A DNA stretch of 64,000 bases from assembly GCA_043744075.1 (NCBI GenBank), contig JAYTVL010000118.1, positions 9,191 through 73,190 on the forward strand. The letters run 5' to 3'. Position numbers and translations under genes: made by a program. The stretch comes from Pirellula sp. (GTDB lineage: Bacteria; Planctomycetota; Planctomycetia; Pirellulales; Pirellulaceae). Positions 1,858-62,367 of the stretch are shown piece after piece; within the stretch, counting starts at the first letter, position 1; each line of letters begins with the position of its first letter. A model generated the notes under the pieces. That model ran no database searches and was not told the origin of the DNA. It saw only the letters and a list, made by a program, of their open reading frames with translations.

Positions 1858-2878
1858 AGCATTGACTACAAAGCAGTGCTTCCAACGCCCTGCTTTCACC
1901 TTGGTGGAGTTATTGGTGGTCATTGCAATAATCGGAATCCTGGTTGGGTTACTAGCACCGGCAGTTCAGTTTGCACGTGAAGCTGCAAGAAAGATGAATT
2001 GCACTAACAACACAAAACAACTGGCGCTTGCATGTGCGAACTACGAGACAGCGTTTCGCTGTCTTCCTCCTGGTACTGTTGTTAACTATCAATCGCCGGT
2101 TCCAAGTATCGGATGGGGTGTTCATGGAAGAATACTTCCATTCCTCGAGCAGGACACACTTGGCTCACGCATCGACTTAACACTTACGTGGGAAAGCCAA
2201 TACACCATTGATGCGGTTCGGATTCCGATTTTTGCTTGCCCAAGTGATCCCAAGGGGACTCTGCTCCGCGACCCAGGGTCAGGAAGGCCACGAGTTTATC
2301 CAACCTGTTACGGGTTCAATTACGGCACTTGGTTTGTGTTCAATCCAATAGGCTTTCGCCCCGGTGATGGTTTGTTTTACCCCAATAGCTTTCAAAAATT
2401 GAGTTCTGTTCTTGATGGGGCAAGTAACACGCTTCTGATAGCAGAAGTTCGAGCGTGGCAACCCTTTTATCGTAACGGTGGTACACCGACAAATTTACTA
2501 CCGAATGACGCAACTTCGCTTGCAGCGTTAGCTCTCTCTTCGGACAACGTTTTTCGAGATTCTGGACATACCGAATGGCCTGACGGACGTGCACATCATA
2601 CTGGATTCACAACGACCTTCGCCCCAAATAACAGTGTGCGTGTAATGGTTTCAGGTGTGCCAACCGCTATTAATTACAATTCTTGGCAAGAAGGATTAAA
2701 TGGACTATCGGGGAGACCGACCTATGCAGCGGTAACTTCACGCAGTTATCACGCTGCAAGCATTGTTGGAGCCCGATTGGATGGAAGTGTCGTCTCGTTT
2801 TCCGATTCGATAGACGTTTCTTTATGGCAATCACTGAGTACGCGAGCGGGTGGAGAGGTTACGCACGATGTTGAGTAG
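1835..2878 (+). CDS. DUF1559 family prepilin-type N-terminal cleavage/methylation protein
   Basis: FTLVELLVVIAIIGILVGLLAPAVQFAREAAR...C.NN.KQL.LA N-terminus and C-terminal H-X9-DG motif (HAASIVGARLDGSV), the planctomycete hallmark family. Confidence 0.95.
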   Translation: MNCNCHDRALTTKQCFQRPAFTLVELLVVIAIIGILVGLLAPAVQFAREAARKMNCTNNTKQLALACANYETAFRCLPPGTVVNYQSPVPSIGWGVHGRILPFLEQDTLGSRIDLTLTWESQYTIDAVRIPIFACPSDPKGTLLRDPGSGRPRVYPTCYGFNYGTWFVFNPIGFRPGDGLFYPNSFQKLSSVLDGASNTLLIAEVRAWQPFYRNGGTPTNLLPNDATSLAALALSSDNVFRDSGHTEWPDGRAHHTGFTTTFAPNNSVRVMVSGVPTAINYNSWQEGLNGLSGRPTYAAVTSRSYHAASIVGARLDGSVVSFSDSIDVSLWQSLSTRAGGEVTHDVE

Positions 2879-3034
2879 ATCGACAAACGCATGATTTACC
2901 GAGCGAGGTCGCAAGTACTATTTCAAAGCCAAGCATGATGATGACTTCCATGAGGCAAATGAGGCCGATGACAGGCGTCGGCTCAACTGGCTCAATTAAC
3001 ATTTTTCACCATTTTATCTACGGAGGAAATAGCA

Positions 3035-4537
3035 ATGAACAGGACCATTCGAGGCAGGTTTCATTTTTGGTCAGTTCCCTGTTATTGCATGTGCATTATC
3101 CTTGTTCTGACTTTGACTATCCCACCTTCGGTTGGAAATGCATGGCAGATAAGTGACGCCCCTACAGTTACGCTGCGGTTTGGAATGGAGATCAAACCTC
3201 ACTCACTTGGAGTCGAAGTCGCAGATATCAAGTCCGATCGGGCCGTGAGCAAGAAACTGCATAAGGGGGATATCCTTCGCTCATACGAACTAGTGAGCAA
3301 TCAAGGCGTTAGCCATCGGATTACCAGCGGCCTCACCATCGATCAACTCAAGGAAGCCCTTGCACGTGGAGAAACGCTCTTAATTAGCCTTCTAAGGCGT
3401 AAGGATAGCGGCGAATCTGCCTTCGACGCGATTCAAGTAATTATAGATGCTTCGGATTTGATGCCCCCGCAAACGGTTGAGCATTCGAAAGCTTACAGGT
3501 CTACGTTTACCGTAGGTGAGCCCGAACCCGCTCCTCCTAAATCAGTGGTTTTGGTACCTGTTTTTTATGCAACCGATCGAATGCTAGAGAGCAATGAGTA
3601 TTCCGGAAACCGCGATAACCAATCCCCAAACCCAATCAAGTACGGTGCGTGTGTTGTCTCGATACCGCCAACGCACATTAGGGGACAACTCGAAGGACCT
3701 TCGTTTTGGCGTCTTGAGTTCATGGAGAACCCCACAAAGCACATTGTTCTGCGAACAGTCAGCCAAATTGGAAAGGATGCAACTTTTCAAGCGATCGCTG
3801 CCCAATTCGAGTCTCTTCCGACGATACCTCGTAAACGTGTTCTCGTATTTGTGCATGGTTACAACGTAGCGTTTGACGAAGCCGCTCGAAGAGCCGCACA
3901 AATGCACTACGATTTGCCTTTTCCAGGGGTAACTATGATCTATTCTTGGCCCTCCGACGGAACGATTAGAGGGTACGTTGCGGACCTTTCCGATGTCGAT
4001 TGGTCTGTTCCCCACATGAAGGCCTTTCTTGCTGACCTTGAAAAGCAGCAAGTCGATGATATTTATCTGGTAGCACACAGTATGGGAAATCGAGGCCTTA
4101 CCAAGGCCCTTGTCGAGCTAAAACGCGATGGAGCTGGCAAAAAGATCAAAGAACTGATCTTGGCCGCAGCTGACGTGGATGCAGACGTGTTTACGACAGA
4201 AATCGCTCCGGTGTTGGCAAACATTGCTCCTGCAACTGTCTATGTGTCTTCCTCGGACCTTGCATTATGGAGTTCAGAGACACTTTCAAGTACCCCTCGT
4301 GTTGGCGAGATTCGTGATGGCGAACCAACAATCCCAAGTACTCTGCGCTTGAATGTGATCGACGTCAGTACCGTGAAGTCCGACTTTGTCGGGCATTCAG
4401 CGTACGGTAGTGCCTCGGTCATTACTGATATTTCCAATGTCATTTCGGGAAGACCGTTACCACGGGACTTTCTGAAGTCAGTTGTTGGATCAAAAGGTCC
4501 GTATTACGAGTTTGTATCGACAAGCGAGTTGCCCTAA
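3035..4537 (+). CDS. DUF900-type alpha/beta hydrolase (esterase/lipase) with N-terminal signal and PDZ-like region
   Basis: VFYATDR, VFVHGYNV, YSWPS, nucleophile elbow AHSMGNR, GHSAY. N-terminal hydrophobic segment and GMEIK...GVEV...LHKGDIL PDZ-like stretch. Confidence 0.85.
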   Translation: MNRTIRGRFHFWSVPCYCMCIILVLTLTIPPSVGNAWQISDAPTVTLRFGMEIKPHSLGVEVADIKSDRAVSKKLHKGDILRSYELVSNQGVSHRITSGLTIDQLKEALARGETLLISLLRRKDSGESAFDAIQVIIDASDLMPPQTVEHSKAYRSTFTVGEPEPAPPKSVVLVPVFYATDRMLESNEYSGNRDNQSPNPIKYGACVVSIPPTHIRGQLEGPSFWRLEFMENPTKHIVLRTVSQIGKDATFQAIAAQFESLPTIPRKRVLVFVHGYNVAFDEAARRAAQMHYDLPFPGVTMIYSWPSDGTIRGYVADLSDVDWSVPHMKAFLADLEKQQVDDIYLVAHSMGNRGLTKALVELKRDGAGKKIKELILAAADVDADVFTTEIAPVLANIAPATVYVSSSDLALWSSETLSSTPRVGEIRDGEPTIPSTLRLNVIDVSTVKSDFVGHSAYGSASVITDISNVISGRPLPRDFLKSVVGSKGPYYEFVSTSELP

Positions 4538-57784: not shown

Positions 57785-57891
57785 TTCCTCCCGCCAAGCG
57801 GGGCTTCTCGCTTTCCTCTTCATTAGTTTTTTATGTCCATCAGCTTGCCAGTGAATGAACAATAAAAACCTAATAAAAAGGAAAAAACAAA

Positions 57892-58708: not shown

Positions 58709-59401
58709 TCATATGGCTGCCTCCGCAAGCTCACTTGTAACTTCGTATACCTTGACCGGCTTTCGCCTTAGCCCAAGTTTGGAATATGGTACGGGCTCAA
58801 AGCCATGTGGCTGTCGCATTTTGTTTACCATTCGGGCAAGAATTAGGATCTGGCGGCGAATCGGGGCATACCGAGCATAGGGTAGTTTCCGAAACTCAGA
58901 CGCCAGTGCTTCAGCCGTTCGATGTGGGGCAAGACTTTCAAAAAACGCTTTGAGTTGCACGTACGTCTTGCCCTCGATTCGGACATGGGCACAGAATCGA
59001 TCGGCCGTTCTGCCAGCTTCTTGAACGCCCGCTCTTCGGTACGAGATCGAGTAATCCCCGAGCCTGATCGAATGGCGCCTCGCATCTTTTAGCGATTCTT
59101 TCTCCCCGCCTTGAGAGGCCGGAAGTTTGATTTTGTGATGCCCATCACTGGCCATAATGATGAACCAGTTGCCGCACCGTAAGTAGTGGGCGTTAGCCAA
59201 TCCTGCCTTCTTCCTTCTTCGTCTCTCCCATTCGCTAACGTCAATTTGGTACTTCTCGATAAGTTTCGAATCGATTGACTCAGCCGCTTTCCCCTCTGGG
59301 ATTCGCCCGGTAACAAACCAGTAAAATCCGTGTCTCAGGTAACTTGCGGCTATCAACTGGATCGCGCCTTCCATACTCGCTGCTCGATAAAGGTATGCCA
59401 T
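58709..59401 (-). CDS. Conserved-looking hypothetical basic protein downstream of the structured RNA locus
   Basis: AGGAGG RBS before ATG 59401; Arg/Lys/aromatic rich (SYLRHGFYWFVTGRIP, KY.I..S...R.RRKKAGLAN.HYLR). Confidence 0.75.
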   Translation of the reverse strand: MAYLYRAASMEGAIQLIAASYLRHGFYWFVTGRIPEGKAAESIDSKLIEKYQIDVSEWERRRRKKAGLANAHYLRCGNWFIIMASDGHHKIKLPASQGGEKESLKDARRHSIRLGDYSISYRRAGVQEAGRTADRFCAHVRIEGKTYVQLKAFFESLAPHRTAEALASEFRKLPYARYAPIRRQILILARMVNKMRQPHGFEPVPYSKLGLRRKPVKVYEVTSELAEAAI

Positions 59402-59829
59402 ATTCCTCCTAAAGAAATTCCGTTTCAAAAAATGGACGTTGATTCGTAGTGGCAAATGCCCCTACTCGCTCATACGTCCAAAGCGATACCTTGACTGACA
59501 AACAGGCTCTCTGCCGTTTGTGCGATTAACCTTGCGAAACCAAACAAAGGTCTCAAAGCAAAGAACCACACTTGCGACTTCGAACAACGCGGACTGCTAT
59601 GCTTTATTGCAATGCACCGCTTTCTACAGTGCATGTATGCAATTCATAGTAGCCGCTTTTGAAAACCTTCGGCAATCGCTAACGCGTCCGCAAGACGCAA
59701 CTATAGCGATCGCCGTCAGACACGCTGTTTCAAGTAAAATGCTCGCCAAAGCTTTTCACCTCAAACCGCTTGCTGTTGCCAACCACGGCCACCGAAAACG
59801 GGAGGAAGAACATATCGCTAATCGCGATC

Positions 59830-61020
59830 GTCCTCCGCCCTACGGTGTACGTTCATGGTCGGGGCTTAAAGTGCCCCTCGCCTCTTTCGTTCTCACTCCC
59901 CATGGACATCACTCCAAAGGTGCAAACGTGAACGAGTCGTGACTGCCTTGCCACGCACCTTCTACTACCTTGGACTGGTAGTGCCGGTGTCTTGCCCTTC
60001 GACAAGATCATCGCCCTCCTCCCGGAGGCTTCTACTTAAGGCACGCTCCCACTCATGCGGCATTTCAATCACCGAACTTGACCGTCGTTCGGCACCGAGG
60101 TTGCGATCCCCGGCAGCCACAGAGTTTCCTGCGTTAGCTAATCACTTCACTACTAGAGTCACGTCGTTAGAAGGAATTACCCTTCGATCCACAGACAGTA
60201 TGTGCTACCTTCCGGTAAGCCATAGTTTCCAATCGACCTTGTTCAAGCCGATTGATTTCCCGATGCGAAAGCAGAAGCTCTCGGTATCCGATGGTCCTAG
60301 TCCTTGGACCGTCTGTAGTGGATTGGTCACGGTTTGGCACCGTCTCTCTAGTGATTTACTGGCAAGCTCTATCCGTACTTATTTGGATTGGAGCCTTTCA
60401 TAGTTGAGCTTTTTGCCGTCGGTCTTTTATTCCGATCGCCGGAGTGGCAACTCCGGTATGGCCTGTTACCAGGCTCATAGCTCCCTACGCCAGCCGTGTT
60501 GAAGGAACCTTGGTAGAACCAAGGCCCACAACCCCTTGAGAGGGTTCAACCCCACGGACGGGATTACGCATATCCATGCTTCACCCGTTTTGTGATTAGC
60601 GGCTTGGTACTTGGATCAAAGTCCTAAGCACTAAGTCTTTCCGCATCGCCCGTATTCAATTTGAGAAACAACAGATTGTTATAGGATAGAACGACAGGAT
60701 TACTTCTTAGGCCACTTCTCACTTACAACGTGAGCTTGTGGCCAAGAGATTACTCTGTCGAGCCTCCTTCGCACTGGACGAACCACTCTCGTGGTATCCA
60801 GCGCTAAGGGCGGCGGGATGGTCAAAATTGACCAAAATGAAGGGAGCTACCCTTCGCTTCTTAGCTCGGCTGATAAGACCAAGTTTACCGAAGCCCGCCA
60901 CGCCCGACCATGAACGTCAACTTCGTCTGCCTTAGCCAGTGGAGTATTTCCATTCTGGTTTACCGACAAACTCGCTTTACGCTAAAACTGACGTCCGGCG
61001 ATTACTCGCCTGTGGTTTAC
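59830..61020 (-). ncRNA. Candidate large ornate structured ncRNA (about 1.2 kb; GOLLD/ROOL-class by analogy, unverified)
   Basis: At least 15 hairpins; GNRA loops (GTAA at 60997-61010 and 60461-74, GAGA at 60782-95); G-U pairs favour the minus strand; 15-bp perfect long-range helix 60903-17/59849-63; no credible ORF. Boundaries approximate. Confidence 0.65.
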
Positions 61021-61166: not shown

Positions 61167-62159
61167 TTAATTGATTGCTATAGCTAAAACCTTTCCAAGG
61201 CGTACACCGCCCGCGAGCATGCGTTGTTGTGCAGAATTACCACCGCTCTTGAGGTAGCTCTCACTACAGACGACGGGTATATCTTGAGTGTTTGCAATCA
61301 GTTGCGCCCGTATCTCTTGCGAATAGGCAAGCGAAGATGCAATTTCGAGGCTCTCGGTCAACCAATCCTCTTCGTTCATCGACAAACTCTCTGTGGGATC
61401 GTGCTCACCAATAAGTTGAAGTGCACGGTTTCTCGCCGTACGCCACTTAATGTCATTTCCTGGGAATTGATCCCATAAGCTATGCAGATTACCTCTCTGT
61501 TTCGTTTTTATCGAATTTCCGCCTCTGTCGCCTCGTTTGAATAACGTCTCCGAATATAACGAAACTGAGTGAAGGGGCTGATGGATGTCGCCAACGGTAT
61601 GGCATAGCCAAGTTATCATTAAAGCCTTGTTTGCATCTGTGGCGTTTACGTCACGTAGGACAGACCGAGATTTTCGGATAGCCTGAACAATGTTCATGTC
61701 TTCGACAATTGCAGCCGGAGGATGCAGGCTTACGTTCGCAGTTAGCTTTCCGGCAAAGAAATGCACATCGGATTCTTGAAGAAAAACTGGGAGGTTAATG
61801 TAATGCCAAGAGCCATGATGGTAGGTCGCCTTAAGTTCGCCACGGAAGCCTCGCGTGATGTCCGGCCAAATCGATGCTTGCTGGAGCATCCACTCATGCC
61901 TTTCGGTTTCGTTCGTGATTTCCTTTTCTTTGGCAAGGATCGTTTCAAAATCCTCAGCAAATCTTGGATGGTTCTTAAGTAGCCCAACAAATTTTCTTCG
62001 TTGGACTTCATTCAACTGCCTGAATGCTATCGACGCAATAATACGATGCCCAGCCGAACTCCATGCACATGCATTTGGGGCAAGCATCAGCACGAGTAGA
62101 AAACTGACGACCAAGGCGCGAGAGCAGAATCGACTCCCGTATCTTTGGCAACGTTTCAT
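61167..62159 (-). CDS. S1/P1 nuclease (secreted)
   Basis: Signal peptide, then mature W-SSAGH; ASIWPD; WHYIN; H.VGDIHQPLH; GDRGGN; NLHSLWD; LAGG.RL. Confidence 0.95.
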   Translation of the reverse strand: MKRCQRYGSRFCSRALVVSFLLVLMLAPNACAWSSAGHRIIASIAFRQLNEVQRRKFVGLLKNHPRFAEDFETILAKEKEITNETERHEWMLQQASIWPDITRGFRGELKATYHHGSWHYINLPVFLQESDVHFFAGKLTANVSLHPPAAIVEDMNIVQAIRKSRSVLRDVNATDANKALMITWLCHTVGDIHQPLHSVSLYSETLFKRGDRGGNSIKTKQRGNLHSLWDQFPGNDIKWRTARNRALQLIGEHDPTESLSMNEEDWLTESLEIASSLAYSQEIRAQLIANTQDIPVVCSESYLKSGGNSAQQRMLAGGVRLGKVLAIAIN

Positions 62160-62163
62160 TCTG

Positions 62164-62367
62164 TTAGCTCCCAATTGCTCGCCCAACGATAAAACAAATC
62201 CCGAGGATAAAAGCGGCCATGACAGCTGCAGCAGCCATATTTCCCTTTTTGATTTCCTGCGCAAAATCGATCCGCCATTCCAAAAAGTCGAAAAGAAAGT
62301 AACCGGCGATCGACAAGACCAAACCGACCGAACCGAAAAGTGAAGCGATTAATACTGATTCCCACAT
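62164..62367 (-). CDS. DUF350 small membrane protein
   Basis: Two TMs with IDFAQEIKKGNMAAAAV; GGAG RBS before ATG 62367. Confidence 0.85.
   Translation of the reverse strand: MWESVLIASLFGSVGLVLSIAGYFLFDFLEWRIDFAQEIKKGNMAAAAVMAAFILGICFIVGRAIGS

Follow-up and report, generated by a model that had tools for sequence, protein, structure and literature searches.

Circularly permuted (CP) group II ribozymes were reportedly described in 2021 and later solved by cryo-electron microscopy (cryo-EM). A protein encoded beside such RNAs was named AcpG by Roth, Weinberg, Vanderschuren, Murdock and Breaker (iScience, 2021; PMC8637638). Here we analyze a 64,000-nucleotide stretch of Pirellula sp. (contig JAYTVL010000118.1, positions 9,191 to 73,190; hereafter the window), in which a gene for a protein of 230 amino acids (aa) lies on the minus strand, downstream of a long structured RNA. 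The protein is very probably a diverged AcpG, the dedicated partner of the adjoining CP group II ribozyme. An association of AcpG with CP group II RNA has already been published (PMC8637638), and thus the locus does not represent a new kind of system. New with respect to the literature searched are a planctomycete, cyanobacterial and Bacillus branch with almost obligate co-oriented pairing of gene and RNA, a 3' extension of the RNA that resembles subdomain D4a, and the predicted fold of AcpG, which is similar to that of reverse transcriptases (RTs) and maturases.

The window protein was assigned to AcpG because of a profile-profile link to TTHC007 of the Thermus thermophilus plasmid pTT8 and a matching order of helices and strands. 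In particular, comparison of a 73-sequence family profile with the TTHC007-type AcpG from Thermus by hhalign gave a probability of 95.6% (E 1.1e-8) over 166 collinear columns, with family residues 11-195 facing AcpG residues 15-202, and a shallower profile of 24 close homologs gave 90.6% (E 1.3e-6). No similarity between the window protein and TTHC007 was detected by BLASTP, so that the link is seen only between profiles. The AlphaFold models of the two proteins predict an identical order of helices and strands, and both models have the same best whole-protein structural match, 6me0_C, in the same region of the chain (151/154-456). Thus, the window protein resembles TTHC007 and other AcpG proteins in profile homology, in size (about 200-260 aa), in predicted fold, in its position next to a CP group II ribozyme and in frequent location on plasmids, and differs from TTHC007 in the absence of pairwise similarity. 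The accompanying RNA is also longer, about 1.4 kb as compared with about 0.9 kb for the published AcpG-associated RNA, and the gene is here always downstream and co-oriented, whereas it is divergent in Thermus and of variable orientation in the survey of Roth et al. Planctomycetes and cyanobacteria are absent from the supplementary files of that survey (PMC8637638).

The open reading frame (ORF) is a real gene, since a word-indexed search found 317 homologs of its product, and 1,391 clusters (50% identity, E ≤ 1e-3) came out of an exhaustive search with a profile, 262 of them with E ≤ 1e-30. The best 120 of the 317 homologs listed are 53-77% identical to the window protein, and those named belong to Pirellulales and other Planctomycetota; the most diverged family members are placed by the ESM Atlas mostly in Pseudomonadota. 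The start codon is the ATG at 59401, where the alignment of homologs begins, and not the TTG at 59455. Several features of the gene recorded in an initial annotation, which was made from the window alone, were confirmed: the perfect AGGAGG ribosome-binding site (a GGAGG-type site is found in approximately half of 35 aligned loci), the abundance of Arg, Lys and aromatic residues (17.8% Arg+Lys and 10.4% Phe/Trp/Tyr, with an isoelectric point of 10.0), and a CAHVRI segment, located at residues 137-142. The protein has no match in Pfam, PHROG or NCBIfam. At a relaxed Pfam threshold (E ≤ 10), 73 diverse family members yielded just scattered single matches, a sequence search of the PDB with the family profile returned nothing meaningful, and ten of the longer members of the family (308-431 aa), checked for fused RT fingers, contained no Pfam domain.

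The gene is separated from the next gene, which encodes an S1/P1 nuclease (61167-62264), by 1.7 kb without a credible ORF. As judged from alignments of the orthologous regions, the RNA located in this gap is a CP group II ribozyme, because covarying domains 5 and 6 (D5 and D6) precede a linker and domain 1 (D1). The catalytic triad of D5 is AGC in most relatives and CGC in the clade of the window, with a compensating change in the partner strand, and the bulge of D5 consists of two bases on the 3' side, both in an alignment of 35 orthologous regions and in a focused alignment of D5-D6. In D6, the aligned pairs 54-145 and 55-143 leave an A in column 144 unpaired. Compensatory changes were observed in 24 of the 34 pairs predicted in the focused alignment. 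Past D6, the 3' splice-site region leads into a linker whose length differs widely among the loci of the 35-region alignment, then into an invariant GGGCGA (60651-60646), and finally into D1 with the long conserved body of the RNA. Should the 3' splice site lie directly after CCUAU (60681), with the intron starting again at GGGCGA (60651), back-splicing would release a circle of only about 29 nucleotides (nt) (60652-60680, minus strand).

A covariance model built on D5-D6 of these RNAs, called R1, finds weakly (16.4 bits, E 0.003) the ORF-free gap of pTT8 beside TTHC007, where a bona fide CP group II RNA was placed by Roth et al. (PMC8637638). An nhmmer search of pTT8 with the RNA profile gave no match. 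Similarly, Rfam, both at gathering thresholds and at E ≤ 1, detected nothing in the RNA region of the window, nor did it detect the published RNA of pTT8, and thus it has no model for the CP group II class. Elsewhere in the window, an AT-rich long hairpin (57810-57886, minus strand) has a sub-threshold Rfam match to the plant microRNA precursor MIR6426 (29 bits versus a gathering score of 96), which is surely due to chance.

The conserved RNA does not end with the ribozyme core. In the conservation profile, a variable stretch (59860-59800) is followed by a second conserved block from approximately 59800 to 59611, and in the alignment of this 3' extension 17 of the 29 predicted pairs show compensatory changes. 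The initial annotation had listed three hairpins in the spacer and suggested a structured transcript as far as about 59490. The extension beyond 59830 is borne out by the conserved block, which contains two of these hairpins, but conservation ends near 59611, and the third hairpin (about 59521-59497) falls in a spacer of about 210 nt that shows little conservation. A 19-bp hairpin at 59715-59670 (-28.4 kcal/mol, z-score -5.3 for the window copy) has the GCGTC/GACGC stem at its tip. Given the indels in the alignment, the orthologous segments were folded one by one, and a single hairpin of 15-20 bp was obtained in 29 of 29 loci from differing sequences (mean z-score -3.1). Conservation extends to the TGCACTG/CGGTGCA hairpin (59634-59612), in which some of the basal pairs show compensatory changes. 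The block also includes a covarying hairpin at 59769-59724, which was absent from the earlier list, and the single-stranded, almost invariant element ACUAUGAAUUG at 59650-59640. Downstream, a hairpin (59479-59434) followed by a T-run ends 25 nt before the ATG; it was missed by a simple terminator scan because of its long loop. In 13 of 35 loci a similar hairpin and T-run, with the consensus GUGGGGUUGG...CAACCCCAC followed by UUUU, is located 20-61 nt before the ATG. Lying between ribozyme and ORF, this element may act as a terminator or attenuator, or may form a 3'-end structure, and the ORF may be transcribed either from its own promoter or, subject to attenuation, by readthrough from the promoter of the RNA.

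The conservation of the pair was examined in a scan of one genome per species, in which 245 relatives were found and 80 loci were kept, all but one labeled Planctomycetota (the remaining one, L077, is labeled only 'bacterium'). Of the 58 loci whose upstream flank spans at least 1.5 kb, 56 have the RNA directly upstream of the gene and on the same strand, as detected with an nhmmer profile; in the loci with shorter flanks, the RNA runs to the contig edge in 19 of 22. Both exceptions, L029 and L051, are 5'-truncated copies of the gene. A similar picture emerged from 61 genomes sampled evenly across the order, with a same-strand R1 match located 1.2-1.9 kb upstream of the ORF start for 21 of 24 full-length proteins; one of the three unpaired proteins is encoded at a contig end, and another (in genome G004) has partial RNA homology upstream. 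The initial annotation had proposed the protein as a candidate partner of the RNA, and this proposal is strongly supported by both counts: homologs of the protein are mostly accompanied by the RNA, and the two among the 58 loci that are not are 5'-truncated. Conversely, 6 of the 27 RNA matches in the 61-genome sample have no protein nearby. One of these is at a contig edge, two are weak, and the other three are truncated remnants covering just the 5' part of the RNA profile. The co-oriented synteny is near-obligate, and the possibility that gene and RNA are mere neighbors was rejected. With respect to the exceptions, the matches in L029 (Neorhodopirellula pilleata Pla100_22380) and L051 begin at residue 15 and residue 89, respectively, the 5' end of the gene being replaced or missing, and both loci, annotated as ordinary hypothetical proteins, look like decayed modules. 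Among the unpaired RNA fragments, one precedes an IS66 transposase gene by about 1 kb, and one adjoins the gene of a HipA-like kinase.

The Pirellula genome itself contains four full AcpG-like genes with 41-52% identity and one gene fragment. The RNA is present at all three testable copies, and exactly these three RNAs are found by R1 in the 9.5-Mb assembly. Since the copies are only 41-52% identical and reside on different contigs or at different sites, they suggest several distinct elements rather than recent copies. On contig C643, the gene fragment lies 1.7 kb downstream of a full module. Outside of the phylum, the co-oriented pair with an ORF-free gap of 1.4-1.7 kb was identified on pLBX of Leptolyngbya boryana (R1 E-value 4e-16), on plasmid5 of Calothrix sp. 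NIES-4101 (5e-26) and on a 10.8-kb plasmid of Bacillus cereus (2e-8), and the same arrangement is observed on the planctomycete K2D plasmid pK2D_1 (2e-26). On the Calothrix plasmid, two D5-D6 units (L106:629-739 and 2780-2881; R1 E-values 2e-22 and 5e-26) are located on the same strand 2.1 kb apart, and an AcpG-like gene follows only the second of them. The ribozyme could thus be present in tandem or be partly duplicated here, which bears on the origin of the permutation.

The structure of the protein was predicted by AlphaFold2 (AF2) from the 73-sequence alignment with high scores (predicted local distance difference test 96.7, predicted template modeling score 0.90), and the model has the palm and thumb (X) organization of a group II RT/maturase. 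All whole-protein structural matches are RT-like, in the order group II RT, G2L4, the defense-associated RT (DRT) DRT9, Prp8 and retron, and the best and most complete ones are group II intron maturases in ribonucleoprotein (RNP) complexes, ranking above defense RTs. The structure prediction and Foldseek comparison proposed in the initial annotation gave RT-like proteins as the best rows against the PDB, namely retrons Eco8 and Ec86, the group II intron RNPs 8t2r, 8t2s and 8h2h, the GsI-IIC RT, and Prp8, none of them reaching E ≤ 1e-3. In BFVD, the highest probability was obtained for a phage 'group II intron reverse transcriptase/maturase', a weak pointer, and the nearest named ESM-Atlas cluster carries RVT_1, with a score of 0.80 that makes it only a lead. 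Taken together, the models make it likely that the protein has an RT palm and thumb-like fold.

When the family was compared by sequence with a small set of aligned group II RTs, taken from planctomycete genomes of the same order, the resulting alignment was collinear and in agreement with the predicted structure, and in it the motifs RT3, RT5, RT6 and RT7 fall on matching strands (see the last rows of Table 1). The positions of the RT3 aspartate and of YxDD read T/G and R-x-x-(R/N)-W, without a conserved Asp pair, and both RT4 and the RT0-2 fingers are missing. Because the fingers, RT4 and all catalytic aspartates are lacking, the protein cannot polymerize. Across the 73 diverse homologs, R75, Q184 and R196 are invariant, and G25, G32, D44, Y51, G67, Y73, G87, E100, Y117, V140, A158 and N193 are invariant or nearly so; no pair of His residues with a Tyr is found among them. 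These residues form neither a polymerase site nor an HUH site.

In comparison with the group II RT/maturases LtrA (8h2h), T.el4h (6me0), E.r. (8t2r) and GsI-IIC (6ar1), the AcpG-like protein is approximately half as large and lacks the RT0-RT2 fingers, RT4, YADD, the RT3 Asp, the DNA-binding and endonuclease (D/En) domains, and any Pfam RVT_1 or GIIM signal, and its RNA is permuted and back-splicing. The known degenerate RT-derived splicing factors, plastid MatK, plant nMATs and spliceosomal Prp8, are larger and have retained more RT motifs. In the defense modules that combine a non-coding RNA (ncRNA) with an RT (retrons, DRT2, DRT9, AbiA), the RTs are active and make cDNA, whereas the AcpG-like protein has no active site and its RNA is a putative self-splicing ribozyme.

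In canonical group II introns, the strand that follows domain 3 (D3) is the 5' strand of the domain 4 (D4) stem, and it is followed by D4a, the maturase-binding site, and then by the ORF. The corresponding strand of the window (59863-59849) precedes the conserved hairpin block, behind which lies the AcpG-like ORF, and thus the module resembles a permuted intron in which a degenerate maturase gene has been retained, as the ORF comes after the 5' strand of D4, the site of the intron-encoded protein. In topological terms, the ORF would fall in the interior of D4, with the terminator-like hairpin separating it from the ribozyme. The segment upstream of D5 is joined to the segment after D3 by a 15-bp clamp. 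In the cryo-EM study of the Gdi-1 CP intron (Nucleic Acids Research, 2026), the omega-omega' helix is the stem of a split D4, and CP introns are described as lacking the protein-coding region present in D4 of many bacterial introns (PMC13717195). The clamp corresponds to this omega-omega' stem of the split D4. A tandem duplication of an ORF-bearing intron, with both ends trimmed inside D4, would yield exactly this layout.

We therefore favor, as rather more probable than any other explanation considered, an RT-derived, maturase-like cofactor that aids back-splicing in vivo. According to this model, the AcpG-like protein would bind its own RNA, probably at the hairpins of the 3' extension in the D4a position and in addition at the ribozyme core. 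Binding would stabilize the active fold of the ribozyme, allow back-splicing to run at cellular Mg2+ concentrations, and lead to the release of a tiny RNA circle and a branched RNA. The RNA binding suggested in the initial annotation is plausible in light of the predicted RT/maturase-like fold and the basic charge of the protein.

Several observations weigh against this model. Protein is not needed for the self-splicing of CP group II ribozymes in vitro, and many CP RNAs have no acpG nearby, the gene being of variable orientation (PMC8637638). The Thermus pair on pTT8 is divergent, and in view of such variation the co-oriented form could equally well be the derived one. The terminator-like hairpin between the RNA and the ORF may mean separate or attenuated transcripts. 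None of the 73 family members has a match to RVT_1 or GIIM in Pfam at E ≤ 10, and the hhalign comparison with planctomycete group II RTs is not significant (probability 2.5-4%, E 0.01-0.02 as a single comparison); an additional protein search aimed at deepening the RT profile recovered only close relatives (69-97% identity) and did not raise this probability.

The last two points, together with the absence of any Pfam match and the Foldseek E-values above 1e-3, are what would be expected if the resemblance to RTs were convergent or generic, resulting from a sheet like that of the RNA recognition motif and a helical bundle, and AcpG were an unrelated family of nucleic acid-binding proteins. We regard this as improbable, since two models built from different alignments share the top chain and the region matched in it, every whole-protein match is RT-like, the weak alignment is collinear and places four RT motifs on matching strands, and the gene is found where an intron-encoded protein would be. 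Slightly better odds, although still low, are given to the possibility that the protein is a true partner of the RNA but not a folding cofactor, and either acts on the products, the RNA circle and the branched RNA, or links them with some function of the plasmid, for example replication control, maintenance, defense or anti-defense, in a manner similar to the retron and DRT modules of an ncRNA and an RT-like protein. Such a role is consistent with splicing in vitro without protein, with structural matches that include DRT9, DRT2, AbiA and retron RTs, whose systems have an ncRNA just upstream, and with the genomic context, as the modules reside on backbones of plasmids or integrative and conjugative elements, where ParA/ParB, a conserved gene for a 433-aa protein, RadC and an RNase T-like exonuclease are repeatedly encoded close by; the window has an ArdC-like gene (Pfam ArdcN) about 2.7 kb away in convergent orientation, and RepA is encoded nearby in K2D. 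However, group II intron maturases in RNPs outrank the defense RTs as fold matches, the polymerase active site is absent, and no effector gene is conserved beside the pair across phyla.

The initial annotation had also considered DNA processing, with the CAHVRI segment as a possible HUH-like motif. A basic protein encoded on a mobile element would fit an HUH-type or other DNA-processing enzyme, and many homologs from Pirellulales indeed read H-A-H-V-R at positions 137-141, but the window protein has Cys137, His137 and His139 are found in only 44 and 22 of the 73 diverse homologs, respectively, and there is no HUH nuclease among the top 50 structural matches, where RT-like proteins prevail. This function was not borne out, and we reject it as very improbable. 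A plasmid Rep protein or primase was rejected as well, as K2D and pTT8 have their own Rep genes and no fold match to a primase or to the archaeo-eukaryotic primase (AEP) superfamily was obtained. The above-mentioned 433-aa protein, which has no Pfam match, is encoded about 0.8 kb upstream of the RNA on the same strand in 28 loci (for example, L043:2370-3671), with ParA/ParB further upstream on the other strand, and may be the replication initiator of these plasmids. The window lacks this gene and has the S1/P1 nuclease gene in its place.

Table 1. Features of the AcpG-like module, related copies and fragments, and protein segments aligned with group II RT motifs. Positions refer to the window unless a contig, locus or residue range is given.
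Feature	Position	Strand	Basis or remark
Coding sequence of the 230-aa AcpG-like protein	58709-59401	-	ORF and translation, homologs, hhalign, AF2 model, fold matches
AGGAGG ribosome-binding site	59405-59410	-	Read from the sequence; 3 nt 5' of the ATG
Terminator/attenuator-like hairpin (GGACGU...ACGUCC) and six T	59427-59479	-	RNAfold, -14.3 kcal/mol
Conserved RNA block 3' of the core, within D4 by topology (D4a position)	59611-59800	-	Conservation profile, covariation, per-sequence folding
CP group II ribozyme core; order P1/P2, D4 3' strand, D5, D6, linker, D1-D3, D4 5' strand	59849-61010	-	nhmmer homology in 75/80 loci and conservation profile
Clamp helix, 3' arm (5' strand of canonical D4 stem)	59849-59863	-	Perfect complementarity with 60903-60917
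Clamp helix, 5' arm (3' strand of canonical D4 stem)	60903-60917	-	Perfect 15-bp complementarity with 59849-59863
D6 with bulged branch-point A (~60687), then 3' splice-site region and short variable linker	60684-60767	-	Alignments
D5: CGC triad, GAGA loop, 3' bulge	60771-60804	-	Covariation; covariance model R1, 130.8 bits
AcpG-like copies in the same genome	C643:21963-22640, C446:12313-12984, C350:3774-4448		
AcpG-like gene fragment in the same genome	C643:24333-24611		
Unpaired ribozyme 5' fragments	L109:873-1194 and 2195-3826; L108:839-1377; L110:4747-4974		
Segment aligned with RT2a/RT3	Residues 6-33		Y-R..S..G.VQ...G-Y-x-F-Y-V-x-G facing F-R-P.R-S..A..Q-V...G...V-V-D-x-D; Asp lost
Hairpin aligned with RT5	Residues 71-84		Y-L-R-C-G-N-W-F-I-I facing F-V-R-Y-A-D-D-F-V-I-F; YADD lost
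Segment aligned with RT6	Residues 98-103		G-G-E-K-E-S facing N-x-E-K-S
Segment aligned with RT7	Residues 111-121		I-R-L-G-D-Y-S-I-S-Y facing V-E-F-L-G-F-V-F
C-terminal helices aligned with thumb/X domain			

The proposed maturase-like cofactor at this locus leads to a broader, more tentative proposal, to which we give somewhat less than even weight, namely that AcpG as a whole is a degenerate descendant of an intron-encoded RT, and that CP group II introns are not protein-free ribozymes but ribonucleoproteins. The literature searched, including the cryo-EM study, still treats these ribozymes as lacking an intron-encoded protein (PMC13717195). Under this proposal, CP introns would have arisen from an ORF-containing intron, for instance by tandem duplication and trimming, with the circle opened inside the loop of D4, and the maturase gene would have kept its ancestral place behind the 5' half of D4. 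The ancestral arrangement would remain intact on planctomycete, cyanobacterial and Bacillus plasmids and would have been rearranged in Thermus and proteobacteria, and AcpG would be the factor that enables back-splicing in cells. If AcpG is indeed a palm-thumb relic of a group II RT, it hints at the origin of the permuted class. It would also identify the missing cofactor for splicing assays and RNP structures, and would provide, beside MatK and Prp8, a bacterial example of an RT that has come to serve solely in splicing. Because the pairing is almost obligate and many covarying sequences are available, the planctomycete clade is a good test ground for these possibilities.

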